Shown: in pieces, positions 19,629 to 39,233 of the stretch
How positions within the stretch are numbered: the stretch's first letter is position 1
Layout: each line of letters begins with the position of its first letter
Assembly: GCA_035625045.1 (NCBI GenBank)
Contig: DASPQI010000462.1
Location: 1-43,958 of the forward strand
DNA from: Syntrophales bacterium
GTDB taxonomy: Bacteria > Desulfobacterota > Syntrophia > Syntrophales > UBA2185
DNA length: 43,958 bases
Reading direction: 5' to 3'
The notes under the pieces: generated by a model
Database searches by the model: none
The model's input: only the letters and a program-made list of their open reading frames with translations
Told to the model about the DNA's origin: nothing
Program-made: the position numbers and the translations under genes

Positions 19629-19644
19629 ATGGCACATGAATAGC
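19629..19644 (+). promoter_or_regulatory. Candidate sigma54 (-24/-12) promoter upstream of the GGDEF regulator
   Basis: TGGCAC (19629-19634), 5 nt, then TAGCA (19640-19644). GG-to-GC spacing is correct. Intergenic and oriented toward 19923. Confidence 0.4.
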
Positions 19645-19922
19645 ACTATGTATAGTTTATGCATAGTTAAAAAACATTACAACATTGATGACTTTTTCTA
19701 AAGTACAAACTAAAAATCGCCGATAAACACTTCAAGACCAAACAATTACGTTAATTCCATTATTTATATTTGCTTTCATTGGATGTGATTTAGGAAGGAG
19801 GCTTACTAAAATGGATATTTATCCTCCTTTCTTTTTTTCAATATCAGTGATATATCCTTAATGCCTTTAGGGAGAGCAAATAGAGAAAGAAAAAGCAAAA
19901 TAAATGTAACAGCAGGATAAAA

Positions 19923-21650
19923 TTGAAAGAAGAATCCAAGAGCGATGAAGCCGGAAATTTGAGGAAAGAGAATTCACCCCGAATTCTTGTCGTCGATGAT
20001 GCTCCGGAGATGCTGACATTTTTAACGGATATTCTGACCAGTCACAACTATCAGGTAAGCCCCTTCTCCAATGGTCATGCAGCACTGAAATCGGCGACAG
20101 TCGACGTGCCGGACCTGATCCTGCTGGATATAATAATGCCGGATATGGACGGCTTTGAGGTTTGTCATCATCTGAAATCCGACGAACGAAGCCGTATGAT
20201 CCCGGTGATCTTCATCAGCGGTCTTGAAGAGGTCTTCGATAAAGTCAAAGGTTTTGAAGCAGGGGGAGTTGACTACATCACTAAACCTTTTCAGCTAGCA
20301 GAGGTTTTAGCCCGGGTTGAAACGCATTTGGCTATACGTCGCTTGCAAAAACAACTGGAAGGACAAAACATTCGACTCCAGGAGGAAATCACCGAGCGTG
20401 AGCGGGTCGAAGATGATTTAAGAAAATACAAAGCCCACCTGGAAGAGATCGTTGCCCAGCGCACCGCGGAACTTCAACATGTAAACAAAGATCTTCAACA
20501 GGAAATCATTGAACGAGGAAAACTGGAAGAAGCATTGCAGCATGCTAATTACAAGCTTCATGCCATGGTTTATGAATACGGTCTGCGCAATCAAAGGATG
20601 TCTTTCTTTAATCAAATGTCAGAAAAACTTCAGGCCTGCATCTCGCTTGAAGAAACATATCCTGTCATCAGCCAGTTCATTCAGAAATTATTTCTCTCTG
20701 CGACAGGAGCCTTGTATATGTTAAACTCCTCCAGTAATGAACTCGAAGCCACCACATACTGGGGAAAATCGCTTTCAGGTGAAAAAAAGTTTTCCCTGGA
20801 AGATTGCCGGGCTCTGCGGGAAAGAAAGATGCATATTACGATTGATTCTAGACCGGATACATGCTGTCGGCATCTATCCGATGTCCAAGGAAGAAGCAGT
20901 ATCTGTGTCCCCCTGTTATCTCAAGGTGAAACTATGGGAATGCTGCATATACAGCAGCGTACTTCTCATGGATCAAAATCCGCCAAAACGGTATTTGATG
21001 AATCCTCTGAAGGAATAAATGAGGAAATGCAGCAATTAGCTATCACTGTGGCCGACTATCTTGCCCTGTCGCTGGCAAACATAAAACTGAGAGATAAACT
21101 GAAACAACAGGCCATCCGTGATCCTCTTACTGGTCTTTTTAATCGCCGTTACATGGAGGAAACCCTTAGTCGTGAGATAAGGCGAGCTGAGCGTTACAGA
21201 ACCCCCCTCGGAATTATTATGGTTGATCTTGATCACTTCCGACGATTCAACAATACTTTTGGGCATGACGCGGGGGATGTGGTGCTGCAAGACATGGGGA
21301 AATTCCTGCAAAATAATGTTCGTATGGAAGATGTGGCTTGCCGGTATGGTGGGGAAGAGTTTACCCTGATAATGCCTGGGGCATCTCTGGATGTCACTGA
21401 GAAGCGAGCCGAGACATTACGACAAAAAGTTCAGGATTTAAAAATTTACTATAACAATAAATTGCTTGATAGTATCACGCTTTCTCTGGGAGTAGCTGTC
21501 TTTCCCGAGCATGGTTCAACTGGGGAGGAAGTTATTCAGGCGGCTGATGTCGCCCTATACAGGGCAAAGCATGAGGGACGTAATCGGGTAGCGGTAGCAA
21601 ACAATGGAAAGCACGCACCTACCATGCAGATTCCCACGTCCAAAACTTAA
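19923..21650 (+). CDS. Response regulator - coiled coil - GAF - GGDEF diguanylate cyclase
   Basis: Receiver ILVVDDAPEM...LILLDIIMPDMDGF...KP, a long coiled coil, then a GGDEF domain with RDPLTGLFNRR, an intact GGEEF and the RxxD I-site (RMED) 5 residues upstream. TTG start. Confidence 0.85.
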   Translation: MKEESKSDEAGNLRKENSPRILVVDDAPEMLTFLTDILTSHNYQVSPFSNGHAALKSATVDVPDLILLDIIMPDMDGFEVCHHLKSDERSRMIPVIFISGLEEVFDKVKGFEAGGVDYITKPFQLAEVLARVETHLAIRRLQKQLEGQNIRLQEEITERERVEDDLRKYKAHLEEIVAQRTAELQHVNKDLQQEIIERGKLEEALQHANYKLHAMVYEYGLRNQRMSFFNQMSEKLQACISLEETYPVISQFIQKLFLSATGALYMLNSSSNELEATTYWGKSLSGEKKFSLEDCRALRERKMHITIDSRPDTCCRHLSDVQGRSSICVPLLSQGETMGMLHIQQRTSHGSKSAKTVFDESSEGINEEMQQLAITVADYLALSLANIKLRDKLKQQAIRDPLTGLFNRRYMEETLSREIRRAERYRTPLGIIMVDLDHFRRFNNTFGHDAGDVVLQDMGKFLQNNVRMEDVACRYGGEEFTLIMPGASLDVTEKRAETLRQKVQDLKIYYNNKLLDSITLSLGVAVFPEHGSTGEEVIQAADVALYRAKHEGRNRVAVANNGKHAPTMQIPTSKT

Positions 21651-29143: not shown

Positions 29144-30505
29144 TCACTCTTTGAGGCCGTACTTCTTAAGCTTATACCGCAGCATCCGTTCGCTGATGCC
29201 GAGGATTTCTGCGGCTTTCGTCTGATGATCACCCGCCTTTTCCATGGCATCGAGGATTAGTTTGCGTTCCATTTCTTCAATTGATCCCCGGAGCAATCCC
29301 TCTTTCTTACCTGCTTCTTCCGGAAAGATTCTCTCTTCCGTAAACGGAAGATCATCTACTGAAATGACCGAATTTCTCGAAATCACCACGGCCCGCTCGA
29401 TGATATTTTCCAATTCCCTGACATTACCGGGATAATCGTATTTTAAAAGCAGGTCTCTTGCCTCGCTCGTTACGCCTGTTATGTTTTTTCCGTTTTCTAC
29501 AGCAAAACGTTTAAGGAAGTGGTCGATCAGTACGGGCACGTCTTCCTTTCTCTCTCTCAGAGGGGGAATGTCCATGGCAACCACATTCAACCTGTAGAAG
29601 AGGTCTTCTCTGAAACTCCCTTCTTTGACCTTTGATTCCAGATCGCGGTTGGTCGCGCTGATGATCCGCACGTCGGAATGAATGGTCTGATTGCCGCCTA
29701 CTCGCTGAAATTCTCGTTCCTGAAGGAAACGAAGGAGCTTTACTTGCACAGGGGCCGATATATCGCCAATCTCATCCAAAAACAGGGTTCCCCCGTCGGC
29801 TTCCTCAAACCTGCCGATTCTTCTTGCCGTTGCACCGGTAAATGCCCCCCTTTCATGGCCAAATAGCTCGCTTTCGAGCAGACTCTCGGGAAGGGCGCTG
29901 CAGTTTACCGTAATAATGGGACTTGCCGAACGGGGACTGAGATTGTGTATCAATCTGGCCAGGAGTTCCTTCCCCGTACCGCTTTCACCCTTCAAAAGGA
30001 CGGTGGCGCGGCTGGCCGCGATCCTCCTCGCCATATTTATCAGGGCATTCATCTTCGGACTTCCATAAATAATCATGTCCATCGTGACGCCCTTTTCTCT
30101 CAGCTCCTGGCGAAGCATCTCATTTTCCCGGAGCAGGGTACGCCGCTCCGAAACACGATCTACGAGGATAAGAAGCTCATCAAATTCTATAGGCTTGGTA
30201 ATGTAATCTATAGCCCCCGCCTTCATGGCCTCCACCGCTGTTTCTATTGTTCCGTACGCGGTAATGATAACCACATCAATCTCCGGATTGATCTTCTTCA
30301 CCTCTTTAAGCACCTGCATGCCGTCCATGCCGGGCATCTTATAATCGAGGAGAAGCATGTCAAAATGACCTTTTAGAACAGACTTGATTGCCGCATCTCC
30401 GTTTTCAGCTTCCGTTACCGTATGGCCTTCCTTAATCAGAAAATCCCGGAGCATCTCCCGCTGTGACTTTCCATCCTCGACGACCAGAATATTTAACTTC
30501 TTCAT
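29144..30505 (-). CDS. Sigma54-dependent response regulator (NtrC/AtoC/ZraR family)
   Basis: Receiver ILVVEDG...MLLLDYKMPGMDG...KP. AAA+ domain GESGTGKE, GAFTGA, FLDEIGD. C-terminal Fis-type HTH AAEILGISERMLRYKLKKYG. Confidence 0.95.
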   Translation of the reverse strand: MKKLNILVVEDGKSQREMLRDFLIKEGHTVTEAENGDAAIKSVLKGHFDMLLLDYKMPGMDGMQVLKEVKKINPEIDVVIITAYGTIETAVEAMKAGAIDYITKPIEFDELLILVDRVSERRTLLRENEMLRQELREKGVTMDMIIYGSPKMNALINMARRIAASRATVLLKGESGTGKELLARLIHNLSPRSASPIITVNCSALPESLLESELFGHERGAFTGATARRIGRFEEADGGTLFLDEIGDISAPVQVKLLRFLQEREFQRVGGNQTIHSDVRIISATNRDLESKVKEGSFREDLFYRLNVVAMDIPPLRERKEDVPVLIDHFLKRFAVENGKNITGVTSEARDLLLKYDYPGNVRELENIIERAVVISRNSVISVDDLPFTEERIFPEEAGKKEGLLRGSIEEMERKLILDAMEKAGDHQTKAAEILGISERMLRYKLKKYGLKE

Positions 30506-32310
30506 GCCCGAGCACCTTCAGTTTTTCCGTTTTTGTCGCCAGCCCTTTCTCTCGGCAGCAATATCTCAAAGGTCGTACCCGAACCTGGTCGGCTTGCGAC
30601 ACGGATTTCACCGCCATGGCCGCGGATAATCTCGTGAGCAAGGGGAAGCCCCAAGCCCAGGCCTTTTTCCTTTGTTGTATATTCGGGATTGAAGATCCGC
30701 TCCACTTCTTCAACTGACATGCCGCACCCGTTGTCCGATATTTTTATACTGACCCGGTCCTTCCCGCCCGAATCCACGGAGATAATGACAGAGCCTTCTC
30801 CGGATATAGATTCCATGGCATTCTTCACAAAATTGATAATAGCCTGCTCGAGTTTATCCACATCCATGGGAATAATCGCCGGAGTACCGTTGTATCTGGT
30901 TTCCACCTTAATTCCTTTCGAGGCGGCCTCTTCACGAATCAGATTGACAATTTTTTGCAGTAGCTCGGAAACTGGGTAGTCATGGAGCTCCAGACGGCGA
31001 CTTTTAGAAAATGTTAGAAACTCTTCAATGATTCCATCCAGACGTCTGATTTCATCGCGAATAACACCGGCAAGAGTTTTAAACTCTCTTATCTTGTCCT
31101 CATCCGCCGGCATGAATTCCCGTTTGAGTCTCTGGCTGGCCATACTAATAGCGTTAAGGGGATTGCGAATTTCATGAGCCACACCCGCGGCAAGATGGCC
31201 GAGGGCAGACAACCTTTCGGCCTTTTCGAGCTGTCTTTCCATTTCTACAATCCCTGCCAGATGCCTGTTTTGATTATGGTAGAGTGTCCACATCGACAAT
31301 AGGGTGATCAGGATGATAGAACTCATGAAAAGGATAATGTTGCGTTTATTTTCTTCAATGATCTCATCCGTACCTTCCCGATCAAGGCCGAGCCTAGCAA
31401 CTCCCGCTACCTTGCCGAACAAGTATATGGGCGCTGCTATATCCAGAACCTTTTTATTGTTGGAAACGATCTTTCTGCTTTCAAATTTTTTCGTGCCTGC
31501 CAGAATTTCAGCGGTTTGTGCATTACTCCTTTCCCACTTTTCAGGAAGCTGACCCGCGCTGCCCAGGAGCATGTTCCGCTGGTCTGTGATCGTAATATAA
31601 ACCAGACCCTGCCCTTGTCCATGACCCAGTCCTTCCAGGGCTTTTTCTACAGACACCTTCACGCCCCAATACCTCTGGCCGTCCCGATCAAGGGCAATGA
31701 TGACCGTACCGCTTCCATCTTTACGGCGAAGTGCAACAAACCCGATCTTTTTAAGGCTGCCGAGCTTTGCGAAAAGATCCACGTTGATATCTTCTTTCCT
31801 TATCACCGCGGAAGGGCTCCCACCGACTAGATCTGCCGACAGCGACCTGCTTTGGTACACGGCCTTTCCCTGTCTATTAAGAACGGCGACATACCATAAA
31901 CTTTTTTCTTCGGCACATTTGACCAAATATTCTTCATTCAGATGGCCGGCCTTCCATTCTTTATCGATAGTCCGCGCCAATTCCACAAGGGCGGTTGTCA
32001 ATGACTTTTGCGGTAATAGTGCCTCATCAACGAGAGGAACCGTCGTACTTCCGCTGTCCCTCTTGTATGCCTGGATCATGGCATTCAGGTTTTCCTGGGA
32101 CAACCTCTCGACAACACCTATTATACGGAGACCCTGGTTCTCCATGAAACCCATAAGTATCCTGTCACTTCGCCTGAGATCCATAATCCCCATTGTAAGG
32201 ATGAGCCCAATGAAAACGGCACAGACAATGGCCACGGCGATAGGCTGTAAGAAACGCCGGTCATACTTGGGAGAGAGGTGCTGCCAGATAACTTTGTTTT
32301 GCGGTGTCAT
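30502..32310 (-). CDS. Sensor histidine kinase (two TM segments flanking a ~290-aa extracytoplasmic domain; HisKA/HATPase)
   Basis: H-box LAAGVAHEIRNPLNAI, N-box NFVKNAMES, G-boxes SDNGCGM and GLGLGLPLA. 4-nt overlap with the regulator gene. Confidence 0.9.
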   Translation of the reverse strand: MTPQNKVIWQHLSPKYDRRFLQPIAVAIVCAVFIGLILTMGIMDLRRSDRILMGFMENQGLRIIGVVERLSQENLNAMIQAYKRDSGSTTVPLVDEALLPQKSLTTALVELARTIDKEWKAGHLNEEYLVKCAEEKSLWYVAVLNRQGKAVYQSRSLSADLVGGSPSAVIRKEDINVDLFAKLGSLKKIGFVALRRKDGSGTVIIALDRDGQRYWGVKVSVEKALEGLGHGQGQGLVYITITDQRNMLLGSAGQLPEKWERSNAQTAEILAGTKKFESRKIVSNNKKVLDIAAPIYLFGKVAGVARLGLDREGTDEIIEENKRNIILFMSSIILITLLSMWTLYHNQNRHLAGIVEMERQLEKAERLSALGHLAAGVAHEIRNPLNAISMASQRLKREFMPADEDKIREFKTLAGVIRDEIRRLDGIIEEFLTFSKSRRLELHDYPVSELLQKIVNLIREEAASKGIKVETRYNGTPAIIPMDVDKLEQAIINFVKNAMESISGEGSVIISVDSGGKDRVSIKISDNGCGMSVEEVERIFNPEYTTKEKGLGLGLPLAHEIIRGHGGEIRVASRPGSGTTFEILLPRERAGDKNGKTEGARA

Positions 32311-32628
32311 AATATTATCTTGCCGAAAATTGGTCAGTTACTGTTGATATGTCTGGTCGACAATCATATGTTATTAGCATTAAAAGTCAATGACTTCTTA
32401 ATGATAGAGAAAATCGAATTCGTACGAAAAAATTCGACAATTATGTCGATCAGCCGATCAATTGGTGTCTATTTAATAAGTACTTGTTATTTATAGCATT
32501 ATGTATCAGCCGCCAGCCATGTATCGACATTTTTTGCCCATTGTCCCCTAATGAATGTAAATTACTTATATTTCTTTTTTCCGCATTAGTATTGTAAAAT
32601 AAGGCGCTTACAAAGCATTATCCAAATA

Positions 32629-32644
32629 TGGCACAACACATGCA
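32629..32644 (+). promoter_or_regulatory. Near-consensus sigma54 (-24/-12) promoter
   Basis: TGGCAC (32629-32634), 5 nt, then ATGCA (32640-32644). This matches 10 of 11 consensus positions (TGGCAC-N5-TTGCA). It is intergenic and points away from the kinase/regulator operon. Confidence 0.6.
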
Positions 32645-32654
32645 TCTATATTAC

Positions 32655-32782
32655 TACAAAAGTTAATTATCGGTTAATACACGGGCATGATTGGCCGGTA
32701 GTAAACTCAAAACTTGAGAAGGCGTTAAACCTTCACTCCTCCTGAATTGGGGAGACATTATGTCTCCCCTTTCTTTTTTTTA
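32655..32782 (+). ncRNA. Candidate sigma54-dependent small RNA (~125 nt)
   Basis: Bounded by the sigma54 promoter and a strong intrinsic terminator, with no ORF longer than 4 codons. There is an internal CTCAA-aac-TTGAG hairpin (32706-32718) and an unpaired CUCCUCC anti-Shine-Dalgarno-like tract (32736-32742) just before the terminator. Confidence 0.45.
32749..32781 (+). terminator. Intrinsic terminator, plus-strand specific
   Basis: GGGGAGACA-tta-TGTCTCCCC (9-bp perfect stem) followed by TTTCTTTTTTTT. On the minus strand the hairpin is followed by AATTCAGG, with no U-run. The loop is the rarA stop codon. Confidence 0.75.
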
Positions 32783-34122
32783 TCTTTTTCGCCCATTGAT
32801 TCTCGGAGTCTCCGCCAATGCTTAATTCTTTCTTTTATCACCTTTTCATATCCTCTGTCCGTGGGTATATAGAAAGTTTCTCCTTTTAATTCATCAGGAA
32901 GATAGTCCTGAGGAACATAAGCATCTTCGAAATCATGGGCATACTGATAGCCTTTGCCATAGCCAATATCCTTCATTAACCGTGTAGGTGCGTTTCTGAT
33001 ATGAAGAGGCACGGCCAGGGTGCCGGTTTGGCTTATAGTCCTCCTGACTCTGCCATAAGCTGCATACAGGGAATTACTCTTTGGGGCTGTAGCAAGATAT
33101 ACAGCAGCCTGGGCCAGAGCAAGCTCCCCTTCAGGAATACCGATAAACTGAAAGGCCTGCATGGCGGAAACAGCAATGGTAAGTGCTGTCGGATCTGCAT
33201 TCCCGACGTCTTCAGACGCAAATCTCACCATTCGCCGTGCGATATAAAGAGGATCCTCACCCGCGGCAAGCATACGTCCCAGCCAGTAAAGGGCGGCATC
33301 AGGATCGCTCCCCCGGAGGCTCTTGTGAAGGGCTGAGATCAGGTTGTAGTGCTCCTCGCCTCCCTTGTCATACTGTAGCGCCTTTTTCTGAATTGCTTCC
33401 TCCACCACCGCACGAGTAATTTTTCTTTCGTGTGTATCATTAATCGTGAGAAGAGATGCTGCTGCCTCAAGGCTGTTCAAGGCCATGCGCGCATCCCCAT
33501 CCGCAGACCAGACGATGCGGTCAAGCGCCTCGTCATCTATCTCAAGGGAGAGCGTCCCCAGGCCTCTCTCTTTATCATGGACAGCCCGCTTGATCATGAT
33601 CGACAGTTCTTCATCAGAATAAGGCTTGAGGAGCATAACCCGTGATCGCGACAGGAGGGGAGAAATGACCTCAAATGACGGATTTTCCGTAGTCGCGCCA
33701 ATGAGCGTGATGAGGCCCCTCTCGACATGCGGCAAGAAGGCGTCCTGCTGGGCCTTATTGAATCTGTGTATTTCATCGACAAATAAAATTGTCCTTCTGC
33801 GATGGTAACTCCATTGCGAATTCGCCTCGTCAACAACCGCCCTGATCTCTTTTACCCCGGACATGACGGCTGAAAAACTCACGAAATTTGATTTCGTTTC
33901 ATGAGCTATAAGTCGGGCCAACGTTGTCTTTCCGGAGCCGGGCGGACCCCAGAAAATCATGGAAAACAGTTTGTCTTCTTTAATGGCGCGGCGAAGCAGA
34001 CTGCCATCGCTCAGAAGATGCGTCTGCCCTACAAACTCGGCAAGAGTCCGGGGCCGCATCCTGTCTGCCAGGGGACTTAGTTCCGTCCCGTTATTCTTTT
34101 GATCAAATAGATCCATGATCAT
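32758..34122 (-). CDS. rarA: Replication-associated recombination protein A (AAA+ ATPase)
   Basis: LADRMRP, FWGPPGSGKTTLARLIA, ILFVDEIHRFNKAQQDAFLP, and an MgsA C-terminal region (HYNLISALHKSLRGSDPDAALYWL). Confidence 0.95.
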   Translation of the reverse strand: MIMDLFDQKNNGTELSPLADRMRPRTLAEFVGQTHLLSDGSLLRRAIKEDKLFSMIFWGPPGSGKTTLARLIAHETKSNFVSFSAVMSGVKEIRAVVDEANSQWSYHRRRTILFVDEIHRFNKAQQDAFLPHVERGLITLIGATTENPSFEVISPLLSRSRVMLLKPYSDEELSIMIKRAVHDKERGLGTLSLEIDDEALDRIVWSADGDARMALNSLEAAASLLTINDTHERKITRAVVEEAIQKKALQYDKGGEEHYNLISALHKSLRGSDPDAALYWLGRMLAAGEDPLYIARRMVRFASEDVGNADPTALTIAVSAMQAFQFIGIPEGELALAQAAVYLATAPKSNSLYAAYGRVRRTISQTGTLAVPLHIRNAPTRLMKDIGYGKGYQYAHDFEDAYVPQDYLPDELKGETFYIPTDRGYEKVIKERIKHWRRLRESMGEKDKKKKGET

Positions 34123-37937: not shown

Positions 37938-39233
37938 TCACTTATAAAGCGCATCGAGAGGACTGTGCGGCACTTTCGACATGTTTCTGACGACGCGGGT
38001 GTAGATCATGGTCGTTTCCACATTCTTATGTCCAAGAAGCTCCTGGACTTCACGGACGTTCACACCGCTTGCCAGGAGATGCGTAGCAAAGCTGTGGCGC
38101 AGGGTATGGACGCTGGCACGCTTAGGGATGCCCGACTTTCGCAGCGCATTTTTTATCATGTCCTGGATCGCCGTGTCACTGATATGCTGACGGCTCACTC
38201 TACCGCTTCGTGGATCGACAGAGAGCCTCGCCGATGGGAAAACATACTGCCATGCCCACTCTTTGCCTGCCTTCGGATATTTATGGCCGACTGCCCCAGG
38301 AAGCTGGACTTCTCCATATCCTTTTGCAAGATCATCTTCATGGATGAGCTTCACCGCTTCCAGATGCCCTTTAAGCCTGTCTTTGACAGTTGAAGGCAAA
38401 ATTGTCGTTCTATCCCTGCCGCCCCTTTCGCTTCTTACAAATATAGTATTCGCATCAAAATCTATGTCTCTCACCCTCAGGCGGGCAAGTTCCATGAGTC
38501 TCAAGCCCGCACCATATAATAGCTCAGCGATTAACCGATTCTTGGCACTCATGGGGACAAATAGAACCTTGACCTCATCTACAGATAATACAGATGGCAG
38601 CTTCTGTCCCCGTTTTTCGCGTATAGCGCTGCTGGGATCGCCTGTTTCCTTACCCAGCACATTGCGAAAGAAGAAACGAATTGCGTTGAATGCCTGGTTT
38701 TGCGTTGAAGAAGATACTTTTCTTTTGTGGGAGAGATAAGCGAGAAAATTTTTAAAATCCGCCGCCGCAATATCAGATATCTTTGTCTTTTTCTCCGCAT
38801 GAAATACATAGTCAAGAAAACGTTCTATCCATTGAAGATAGACACGCTCTGTGCTGTTGGAATAATGCCTGAATCTGATCAGACGTCTTCCTTCCTTGAG
38901 CAAGCCGCTAACATCCGCAGGGCGGGAGACGCTTGGTACATGTTCAGCCATCTTTTTAAGATATTGAGTAAAATAAAGCCGCAGCGCTTCATTCGCCTGA
39001 CGATGCTGCCATTTAAAGATGCGTCTATCGGACTGTAAAGCATCGAGATATGCAGTGACCGCCCCCTCCTGATAGACCACCATGGACAATTTATGTTTTT
39101 TGGCGTAGTCAAGATATCTGTTGACCCAATGTGCATAGGAGGGGACATTACTTTCCGGGGCAAGCTTTTCTTCCAGAAGGAATTTCTGGAACTCTGGCAG
39201 GGATTTATCTCGAACCTTTGTCGATTTATCCAT
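37938..39233 (-). CDS. intI: Integron integrase (IntI-type tyrosine recombinase) with an extra N-terminal SAM-like domain
   Basis: Catalytic region GLRLMELARLRVRDIDF, HTLRHSFATHLL, LLGHKNVETTMIYTRV. The IntI-specific insertion HKYPKAGKEWAWQYVFPSARLSVDPRSGRVSRQHI aligns with the IntI1/VchIntIA pattern KYPxAxxxWxWQYxFP...DPxSGxxRRHH. Confidence 0.9.
   Translation of the reverse strand: MDKSTKVRDKSLPEFQKFLLEEKLAPESNVPSYAHWVNRYLDYAKKHKLSMVVYQEGAVTAYLDALQSDRRIFKWQHRQANEALRLYFTQYLKKMAEHVPSVSRPADVSGLLKEGRRLIRFRHYSNSTERVYLQWIERFLDYVFHAEKKTKISDIAAADFKNFLAYLSHKRKVSSSTQNQAFNAIRFFFRNVLGKETGDPSSAIREKRGQKLPSVLSVDEVKVLFVPMSAKNRLIAELLYGAGLRLMELARLRVRDIDFDANTIFVRSERGGRDRTTILPSTVKDRLKGHLEAVKLIHEDDLAKGYGEVQLPGAVGHKYPKAGKEWAWQYVFPSARLSVDPRSGRVSRQHISDTAIQDMIKNALRKSGIPKRASVHTLRHSFATHLLASGVNVREVQELLGHKNVETTMIYTRVVRNMSKVPHSPLDALYK

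Follow-up and report, generated by a model that had tools for sequence, protein, structure and literature searches.

What does the short gap between a two-component operon and a convergent, rarA-like gene encode in this Syntrophales bacterium? Within the window, by which we mean the whole 44-kb stretch analysed here (43,958 nucleotides of contig DASPQI010000462.1, assembly GCA_035625045.1), we inspected the candidate region at 32200-33000. There, a sequence-only reading had proposed a small RNA (sRNA) transcribed from a sigma-54 promoter, divergently from the genes of a sensor kinase and an NtrC-type activator. We predict from the sequence that this is very probably a genuine, activator-controlled, sigma-54-dependent sRNA gene. 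The fuller claim, that the gene is genuine and that its RNA also acts by base-pairing, we consider probable, with somewhat less confidence. The sRNA appears to be a dedicated output of the adjacent two-component system. The parts of the gene are as follows.

32629-32644, plus strand: sigma-54 promoter, TGGCAC-N5-ATGCA, with the -24 GG at 32630-32631 and the -12 GC at 32642-32643
32655-32781, plus strand: predicted sRNA of ~125 nt, the 5' end placed from promoter geometry (+/- 2-3 nt), the 3' end within the U-run
32666-32702, plus strand: stem-loop 1 (SL1), a 13-bp stem closing an apical loop, from the predicted fold and compensatory changes
32681-32689, plus strand: SL1 apical sequence ACGGGCAUG, invariant in alignments A2 and A3
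32718-32734, plus strand: stem-loop 2 (SL2), a small hairpin, GAAGG-N7-CCUUC, invariant in sequence
32736-32744, plus strand: C/U-rich tract CUCCUCCUG, predicted by folding to be single-stranded, the presumed seed, complementary to Shine-Dalgarno sequences
32749-32781, plus strand only: Rho-independent terminator, a 9-bp hairpin and a U-run

The predicted RNA thus has its own promoter and its own Rho-independent terminator; the next gene is convergent, and none lies downstream on the same strand. For the 127-nt RNA (~32655 to 32781), the predicted folding energy is -39.6 kcal/mol (z = -4.55). Its terminator hairpin (32749-32769) has six G-C pairs and a loop of 3, followed by TTTCTTTTTT, and no T-run stands behind the hairpin on the minus strand. 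Terminator-like sites occur twice in 650 nt, against 0.3 expected. The hairpin, its U-run on the plus strand only, the overlap with the 3' end of rarA, the small internal hairpin and the CUCCUCC tract (32736-32742) all lie where the sequence-only reading had placed them, as do the kinase and activator genes.

The promoter, TGGCACAACACATGCA, has its GG and GC 12 nt apart (10 nt between), which is the canonical -24/-12 register, and it matches 10/12 specified positions of the consensus TGGCACG-N4-TTGCW. Within the window this is a weak point of the case: the first T of the TTGC motif at -12 is replaced by A, and the promoter pattern, when one mismatch is allowed, turns up twice where 1.12 matches are expected, which alone is not significant. 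Taken by itself, the window makes a partial case, which is settled by conservation across about 100 related loci.

How widespread is the RNA, and what does it travel with? We aligned 15 kinase homologues and scanned one genome per species. Searching with the candidate RNA, nhmmer gave matches in eight genomes, each lying upstream of the orthologous kinase gene and pointing away from it, and a weak one in a ninth, locus L004; the annotations of the positive genomes read Syntrophus, Smithella, Syntrophaceae or unclassified Deltaproteobacteria. We then took a 25-nt invariant core from the first alignment (ACGGGCATGRTYRRCCGRYRRNAAA) and scanned a metagenome collection for it without reference to any protein. 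This yielded 101 matches, 97 of them family members, to which the species genomes add another 9-10. The matches at L088, L103 and L139 were rejected as chance, lying inside GC-rich coding sequence. At L082:7400-7570 (plus strand), the core is preceded by the sigma-54-like TGGCAATACGTTTGCG on a contig without the kinase, with rarA (48% identity) about 0.9 kb away; its membership is ambiguous, the covariance model giving no match, and the likeness could be due to chance or mark a strongly diverged relative.

Conservation in relatives carrying the same two-component system was a check that the sequence-only reading had itself proposed. Upstream flank of 900 nt or more is available for 82 members, and in all 82 of them a kinase gene starts within 700 nt on the opposite strand and is followed by the activator gene. 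The kinase orthologues divergent from the sRNA are 49-100% identical. The covariance model described below finds one copy per locus, including one in the window (108 bits) and the diverged member in L004, and no second copy or paralogue in the window or in any locus. The promoter-to-terminator sequences comprise 69 distinct variants, with RNA lengths of 82-136 nt (median 125). The sRNA is thus conserved in about a hundred Syntrophus/Smithella-type genomes. On the 1.1-kb contig of L115 (600-714, plus strand), the RNA is intact while the sequence upstream of the -12 region has diverged and lacks a -24 element; this contig could be an assembly chimera or a rearrangement.

The operon and its candidate promoter in the window read as follows.

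30502-32310, minus strand: sensor histidine kinase, 602 aa, operon gene 1, HisKA and HATPase_c
29144-30505, minus strand: sigma-54 enhancer-binding response regulator, 453 aa, operon gene 2, with a receiver domain (REC), an AAA+ domain with GAFTGA and a Fis-type helix-turn-helix (HTH)
32363-32390, minus strand: sigma-70-like promoter candidate for the kinase operon, TTGACT-16-TATGAT, from a consensus scan only

The kinase has a ~280-aa periplasmic domain flanked by two hydrophobic segments, followed by HisKA and HATPase_c. The activator start overlaps the kinase stop codon. Its Pfam domains are Response_reg, Sigma54_activat, AAA_lid_14 and HTH_8, and both the GAFTGA motif and the receiver aspartate are visible in the translation. 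A -24/-12 element was looked for on the kinase-operon strand and none was found. The junction of kinase stop and activator start (30502-30510, minus strand) reads GCUCGGGCAUGAAG and has the 9-mer CGGGCAUGA, in the same sense, in common with the invariant sRNA loop, perhaps by chance, perhaps as a form of mimicry.

Is the predicted structure conserved as well as the sequence? The covariance model was built from a 38-sequence MAFFT alignment. Against the minimum-free-energy structure of the window RNA, 77% of the cells in this alignment are paired, compared with 30-51% when the partners are slid, and 14 pairs have changed on both sides. RNAalifold recovered the structure from it only in part. 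The structure was supplied from the single-sequence fold, tested against controls and then refitted by the covariance model. In the resulting model alignment (99 sequences, 73 distinct), 89.3% of cells are paired, against 28-55% in the slid controls; 14/27 pairs show compensatory changes, and 0/500 shuffles reach any of the observed measures. Eight of the nine terminator pairs have compensatory changes, as do 5/10 modelled pairs of SL1 (one of them G-C in 35 sequences and A-U in 24), where 82% of cells are paired. SL2 is paired in 99.7% of cells and shows no covariation, which speaks neither for nor against a conserved structure there; it is missing in 15/73 distinct sequences, and the short Syntrophus-type variants of ~105 nt lack it altogether.

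Both a de novo covariance model and a search of Rfam had been suggested in the sequence-only reading. The first gave the compensatory changes in SL1 and the terminator. In the second, the whole window had no match at gathering thresholds, GlmY/GlmZ and Qrr included, and relaxing the threshold to E up to 10 in the region returned nothing relevant, the top sub-threshold scores (at most 19 bits) belonging to unrelated families. The RNA therefore falls in no curated family.

What controls the gene? Three further elements lie between the kinase start and the promoter.

32434-32449, unstranded: upstream activator sequence 1 (UAS1), the perfect palindrome TCGACA-ATTA-TGTCGA (TCGACAATTATGTCGA), presumed activator site, conserved and unique in the window
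32524-32539, unstranded: UAS2, a TCGACA half-site whose partner half is degenerate (TCGACATTTTTTGCCC), starting at -105 from the promoter
32598-32610, plus strand: bending site resembling that of integration host factor (IHF), AATAAGGCGCTTA, with 2 mismatches to WATCAANNNNTTR, overlapping TTGTAA-N10-TTACAA

The promoter itself is kept: TGGCA(C/T)-N5-NTGC(A/T) stands 46-64 nt upstream of the RNA core in ~90% of 106 loci, so that the near-consensus promoter described from the window alone proves to be held at a fixed distance in relatives. Almost all full-length orthologues, very distant ones among them, have a -24/-12 element that faces away from the kinase gene and lies 240-470 nt from the kinase start.

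UAS1 begins 195 nt upstream of the promoter's 5' edge. The palindrome has 1 match in the window against 0.09 expected. Of 75 distinct intergenic regions, 74 have YCGACA-N4-TGTCGA; counted from the promoter's 5' edge, it lies between -181 and -214, mostly at -190 to -197. A second count gave 75/78 distinct upstream regions, at ~193 nt upstream. Already put forward as an activator site, this palindrome is better conserved than any other intergenic element here and holds a fixed position. The third TCGACA (32524-32529), starting 90 nt from UAS1, was also put forward and is indeed present, though conserved in only about half of the family (an exact TCGACA at -85 to -135 in 37/78 distinct upstream regions); some relatives have a fuller UAS2, TCGACATTTTTGCCGA.

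Two other candidate activator sites did not hold up. TTGTAA-N10-TTACAA (32592-32613) is kept in just 13/78 regions and overlaps the IHF-like site, while the GCATTA repeats flanking it (32583-32588 and 32615-32620) occur as paired copies in 2/78. This stretch is better read as a putative IHF-like bending site: the consensus WATCAANNNNTTR, with at most one mismatch, lies at -31 or -30 from the promoter in 43/75 regions, and at any position in 55/75, compared with 13 +/- 3 in shuffles. Palindrome, putative IHF-like site and -24/-12 element together have the layout of a textbook enhancer-dependent promoter. A candidate for the cognate enhancer-binding protein is encoded alongside, the adjacent regulator having both GAFTGA and HTH_8 and putative sites being conserved upstream of the promoter.

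Some features of the control region argue the other way. The centre of UAS1 is ~213 nt upstream of the start site, which is unusually far; the window's own IHF-like copy is weak, with its 2 mismatches; and L087, L089, L127 and L175 have TGGCAT-N5-TTGTA or TTGAA, with no GC at -12. The promoters of these four loci are either weakened sigma-54 promoters or have changed promoter type.

What might the RNA do? The C/U tract is predicted to be exposed, its mean unpaired probability being 0.76, compared with 0.47 over the RNA as a whole. At this place, RNAs of the window and Syntrophus types have CUCCUCCU or UUCCUCCU, and those of the Smithella type CUCUUCUCUCCU. Different RNAs stand behind the same palindrome and promoter elsewhere. 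L007:3300-3620 and L018:2340-2660 (both minus strand), whose kinases are 48-49% identical, have an RNA of two long hairpins (z = -3.9 and -6.5), with stems that covary between the two loci and loops that carry CUCCUCCUG and CCUCC or UCUCC; no clear U-run terminator follows, and the downstream genes differ. In L010, the divergent promoter has UAS copies at -193 and -106 and is followed by ~200 nt of non-coding sequence with UUCUCCUCCUUUC; this stretch, ~870-1220 nt upstream of the kinase start on the opposite strand, has a GGGGAGGUC/GACCUCCCC hairpin, and a rubrerythrin-like open reading frame (ORF) comes next. The structurally different RNAs of L007, L018 and L010 thus all display CUCCUCCUG, CCUCC or UUCUCCUCC behind the same UAS and promoter. 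Since a CCUCC-type motif is the only thing common to these dissimilar RNAs, it points to the C/U tract as the shared functional element, and this is our main reason for taking it as the seed. The C/U tract is most likely an anti-Shine-Dalgarno seed for base-pairing, to judge from the predicted fold and this recurrence.

The alternative that survives best is a protein-binding or decoy RNA, in which a protein would recognise the SL1 apex (ACGGGCAUG...CCG) and SL2, and the C/U tract would be secondary; the partner might be an RNase adaptor, as in GlmY/RapZ, or a translational regulator. We regard this as unlikely, yet as a serious alternative, because the SL1 apex and SL2 are invariant rather than covarying, across kinases down to ~50% identity. 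Such invariance, which extends over the wider block ACGGGCAUGRUYRRCCG around the SL1 apex, is typical of sequence-specific contacts and fits protein recognition as well as pairing. The SL1 apex ACGGGCAUG is also predicted to be exposed (mean unpaired probability 0.77, where the RNA as a whole averages 0.47).

The search for pairing partners, which covered 44 kb of the genome, predicted no target. The complement of the SL1 loop has the form CAUGCCCGU, and outside the sRNA gene the 44-kb window contains no complement of this loop or of the C/U tract, which leaves no complementary site for pairing there. The sRNA might also feed back by pairing where translation of the kinase, activator and rarA genes is initiated; this candidate was rejected, as a crude method that allows long interior loops gave duplex energies no different from those of shuffled controls. 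Against a decoy, each motif is present in single copy, with no repeated GGA-type sites as in CsrB/RsmZ; the short Syntrophus-type variants do without SL2; and the RNAs of L007, L018 and L010 share the CCUCC-type motif but not the SL1 sequence. It is these last RNAs that lead us to prefer pairing through the C/U tract.

Could the RNA instead act on its convergent neighbour?

32758-34122, minus strand: RarA/MgsA-family AAA ATPase gene (rarA-like), convergent, from the ORF and a family match

The final 8 codons of rarA (DKKKKGET*) overlap the terminator 3' arm and U-run. Since these codons are their complement, one piece of DNA encodes both the protein's run of lysines and the RNA's U-tail. The transcript might then be a short 3'-overlapping antisense RNA, or the hairpin might serve mainly to end the rarA transcript, and rarA does adjoin the sRNA in 49/62 loci. 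We find either role very unlikely. The overlap is just ~24 nt (32758-32781) and excludes the conserved parts, SL1 and the C/U tract; the minus strand has no U-run behind the hairpin; and rarA lies 0.7-2.7 kb away in 11 loci and is missing in 2. As the RNA, promoter and kinase stay together where rarA is displaced or absent, the RNA travels with the two-component system, and rarA is not an obligatory partner.

What stands at this promoter in more distant relatives? In kinase orthologues of 31-41% identity (annotated as Desulfobacterales, Syntrophobacter, Desulfosoma and Desulforhabdus), the divergent sigma-54 promoter precedes a gene for a ~150-aa secreted protein, which lies at the orthologous promoter and palindrome in L012 and L014-L017. 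All 4/4 proteins tested (L012, L014, L016 and L017) match Pfam Metal_resist (ZraP) and LTXXQ. TCGACA-N4-TGTCGA is also found upstream of the kinase gene in these ZraP-type loci. With four ZraP-like queries, tblastn placed the gene beside the kinase in L010, L012-L017, L019-L027, L029, L030, L046 and L063, and found no ZraP-like sequence in the ~100 sRNA-bearing loci or in the 44-kb window. Like the anatomy, conservation and structure of the RNA and the architecture of promoter, UAS and IHF-like site, this exclusivity is a computational observation: ZraP gene and sRNA are mutually exclusive at the divergent promoter. L013, L020, L022 and L023 each have two separate ZraP-like matches; of the two copies in L013, one diverges from the kinase gene and the other runs in its direction. 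In L010, the ZraP-like gene is co-directional and directly upstream of the kinase, with the non-coding stretch described above at the divergent promoter, an arrangement that looks like an intermediate.

One possible account, which we offer tentatively, is that the effector was exchanged in evolution at a single conserved enhancer and sigma-54 promoter of a ZraSR-like envelope-stress system, a periplasmic ZraP-type chaperone and feedback protein giving way to a riboregulator. At least two or three RNAs of different structure (the SL1-type family, the two-hairpin RNA of L007 and L018, and the L010 transcript) would have arisen or diverged there, all keeping the CCUCC anti-Shine-Dalgarno motif. 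If so, the sRNA would be the sole local output of the pathway in Syntrophus/Smithella-type bacteria and would replace the role of ZraP by way of lower envelope-protein synthesis or feedback on the system. Since the same enhancer and promoter precede a ZraP/LTXXQ gene in distant orthologues, the signal is probably envelope or metal stress. Here too there is a point on the other side. For the activator, the NCBIfam models AtoC and ZraR rank top, and AtoS/AtoC score slightly above ZraS/ZraR, yet every equivalog cut-off is missed (ZraS 209 bits against a cut-off of 479, ZraR 472 against 760), and the kinase and activator are not equivalogs of ZraS/ZraR; because of these scores, the support for the stress signal is confined to gene context in the distant orthologues.

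The absence of the ZraP-like gene, which the promoter precedes in those orthologues, would also suit a decaying relic that gives a short functionless transcript or none, but that is hard to credit when more than 17 invariant nucleotides, two covarying helices, an exact distance from promoter to core and the UAS have been kept in ~100 lineages with kinases at ~50% identity.

Does the RNA encode a peptide? The sequence-only reading saw no coding potential here, and the family bears this out: no ORF of at least 20 aa on the RNA strand starts upstream of the terminator hairpin, and no conserved ORF was found across the family. A micro-peptide from the AUG in ACGGGCAUG, invariant and in a predicted loop though it is, is the least credible account of all, as the frame closes after 4 to 31 codons depending on lineage with only the first 3-4 residues in common, no Shine-Dalgarno sequence lies upstream, and substitutions track base-pairing rather than codon positions; the coding hypothesis was accordingly rejected. 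A 31-codon ORF antisense to the sRNA (32663-32758, minus strand) begins in the terminator loop; we regard it as spurious, because indels in the family alignment bar its conservation.

How does the locus compare with known systems? It had been likened to luxO-qrr1 and glrKR-glmY, and the likeness stands as an analogy of arrangement but not as homology, there being no Rfam match to either family. Published work places the GlmY gene next to the GlrK/GlrR (QseE/QseF) operon, with a sigma-54 promoter, upstream activator sites and an IHF site (PMC3045617, PMC4987338). Both loci have an sRNA beside the operon of a kinase and an NtrC-type activator, in an envelope-linked system. They differ in that our RNA has no Rfam match to GlmY/GlmZ even at E up to 10, that the window activator scores lower for GlrR than for AtoC or ZraR in NCBIfam, and that the activator site has a GACA-N4-TGTC core here and is TGTC-N10-GACA for GlrR (PMC4987338). 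Moreover, GlmY is a protein decoy, whereas the window RNA carries a predicted anti-Shine-Dalgarno tract. The Qrr sRNAs of Vibrionaceae are base-pairing sRNAs and share sigma-54, an NtrC-type activator and a short terminator-ended RNA divergent beside the regulator gene (qrr1). There is, however, no homology, Qrr forms a multigene family while our RNA has one copy per genome fragment, and, unlike Qrr-LuxO, the window operon encodes a kinase; the LuxO score in NCBIfam is far under its cut-off.

Within the Desulfobacterota, Dv_sRNA2 of Desulfovibrio vulgaris is a target of the adjacent activator DVU0679, as found by DNA-affinity chip and tiling arrays, and further non-coding RNA targets have been predicted for DVU0653, DVU1419 and DVU2359 (PMC3333781, PMC4641369). 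Compared by description, this is again a two-component sigma-54 activator with an adjacent small RNA. Dv_sRNA2 lies downstream of its regulator gene, whereas the window sRNA and its kinase gene diverge, and for DVU0679 no connection with a ZraP-type gene has been reported. In enterobacteria, ZraR drives divergent sigma-54 promoters, including that of zraP, under zinc and envelope stress (PMC4987338). ZraPSR and our locus both have a kinase and sigma-54 activator operon with a divergent sigma-54 promoter. In the window and all sRNA-bearing loci, the divergent ZraP (Metal_resist/LTXXQ) gene is absent and the sRNA stands in its place; the sensor domain is also larger here (~280 aa), and no sigma-54 promoter is seen for the kinase operon. 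Envelope-stress pathways also use sRNA arms that cut envelope-protein synthesis, namely CpxQ (from the cpxP mRNA) and the sigma-E-dependent MicA, RybB and MicL. CpxQ is even physically tied to a gene of the CpxP/Spy/ZraP superfamily, being cut from its 3' untranslated region. The window RNA differs in being a predicted primary transcript, and these sRNAs depend on sigma-70/CpxR or sigma-E rather than sigma-54 and are not homologous to it.

We infer the following course of events, in which transcription, its dependence on sigma-54 and the activator, the signal, the pairing and the targets are all included. The membrane kinase, with its large periplasmic sensor domain, would phosphorylate the NtrC-type activator on an envelope or metal-type signal. 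The activator would occupy two sites, TCGACA-N4-TGTCGA at about -195 from the promoter and a weaker one at about -105, and a bend at the IHF-like site, immediately upstream of the -24 element, would bring it to the sigma-54 polymerase at TGGCAC-N5-ATGCA. Transcription would begin near 32655 and end at the hairpin and U-run (32749-32781). The resulting RNA would present ACGGGCAUG on SL1, the invariant SL2, the unpaired CUCCUCCUG and the terminator, and its C/U tract would pair with the Shine-Dalgarno regions of target mRNAs and block their translation. Through this, the RNA probably lowers envelope-protein synthesis or feeds back on the pathway.

Two further observations concern other parts of the window. 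A second sigma-54-like -24/-12 match, TGGCACATGAATAGCA, is intergenic at 19630-19645 (plus strand), ~290 nt upstream of a REC-GAF-GGDEF diguanylate cyclase gene (19923-21650, plus strand) and divergent from a TauE/SafE exporter gene. A tyrosine recombinase gene of the phage-integrase family (37938-39233, minus strand), ~5 kb from the sRNA, may mark the edge of a mobile element.

Our literature searches turned up no description of this RNA, or of any sRNA in Syntrophus or in relatives of Syntrophus and Smithella. The RNA is new, while its kind, an activator-dependent sRNA beside its own two-component system, is already known. The less ordinary feature is that the sRNA sits where a ZraP-type gene stands at a conserved enhancer-dependent promoter. 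In methanogenic peat, sediments and digesters, relatives of Syntrophus and Smithella have a key part in the syntrophic breakdown of fatty acids and alkanes, and they are very hard to grow. For such bacteria, the locus offers a well-defined regulatory RNA with a complete, footprinted control region and ~100 natural variants, and the family would be a straightforward addition to Rfam. It also provides a natural example of one enhancer-dependent promoter whose effector is a protein in some lineages and an RNA in others, which may be useful for asking how stress pathways trade protein for RNA outputs.

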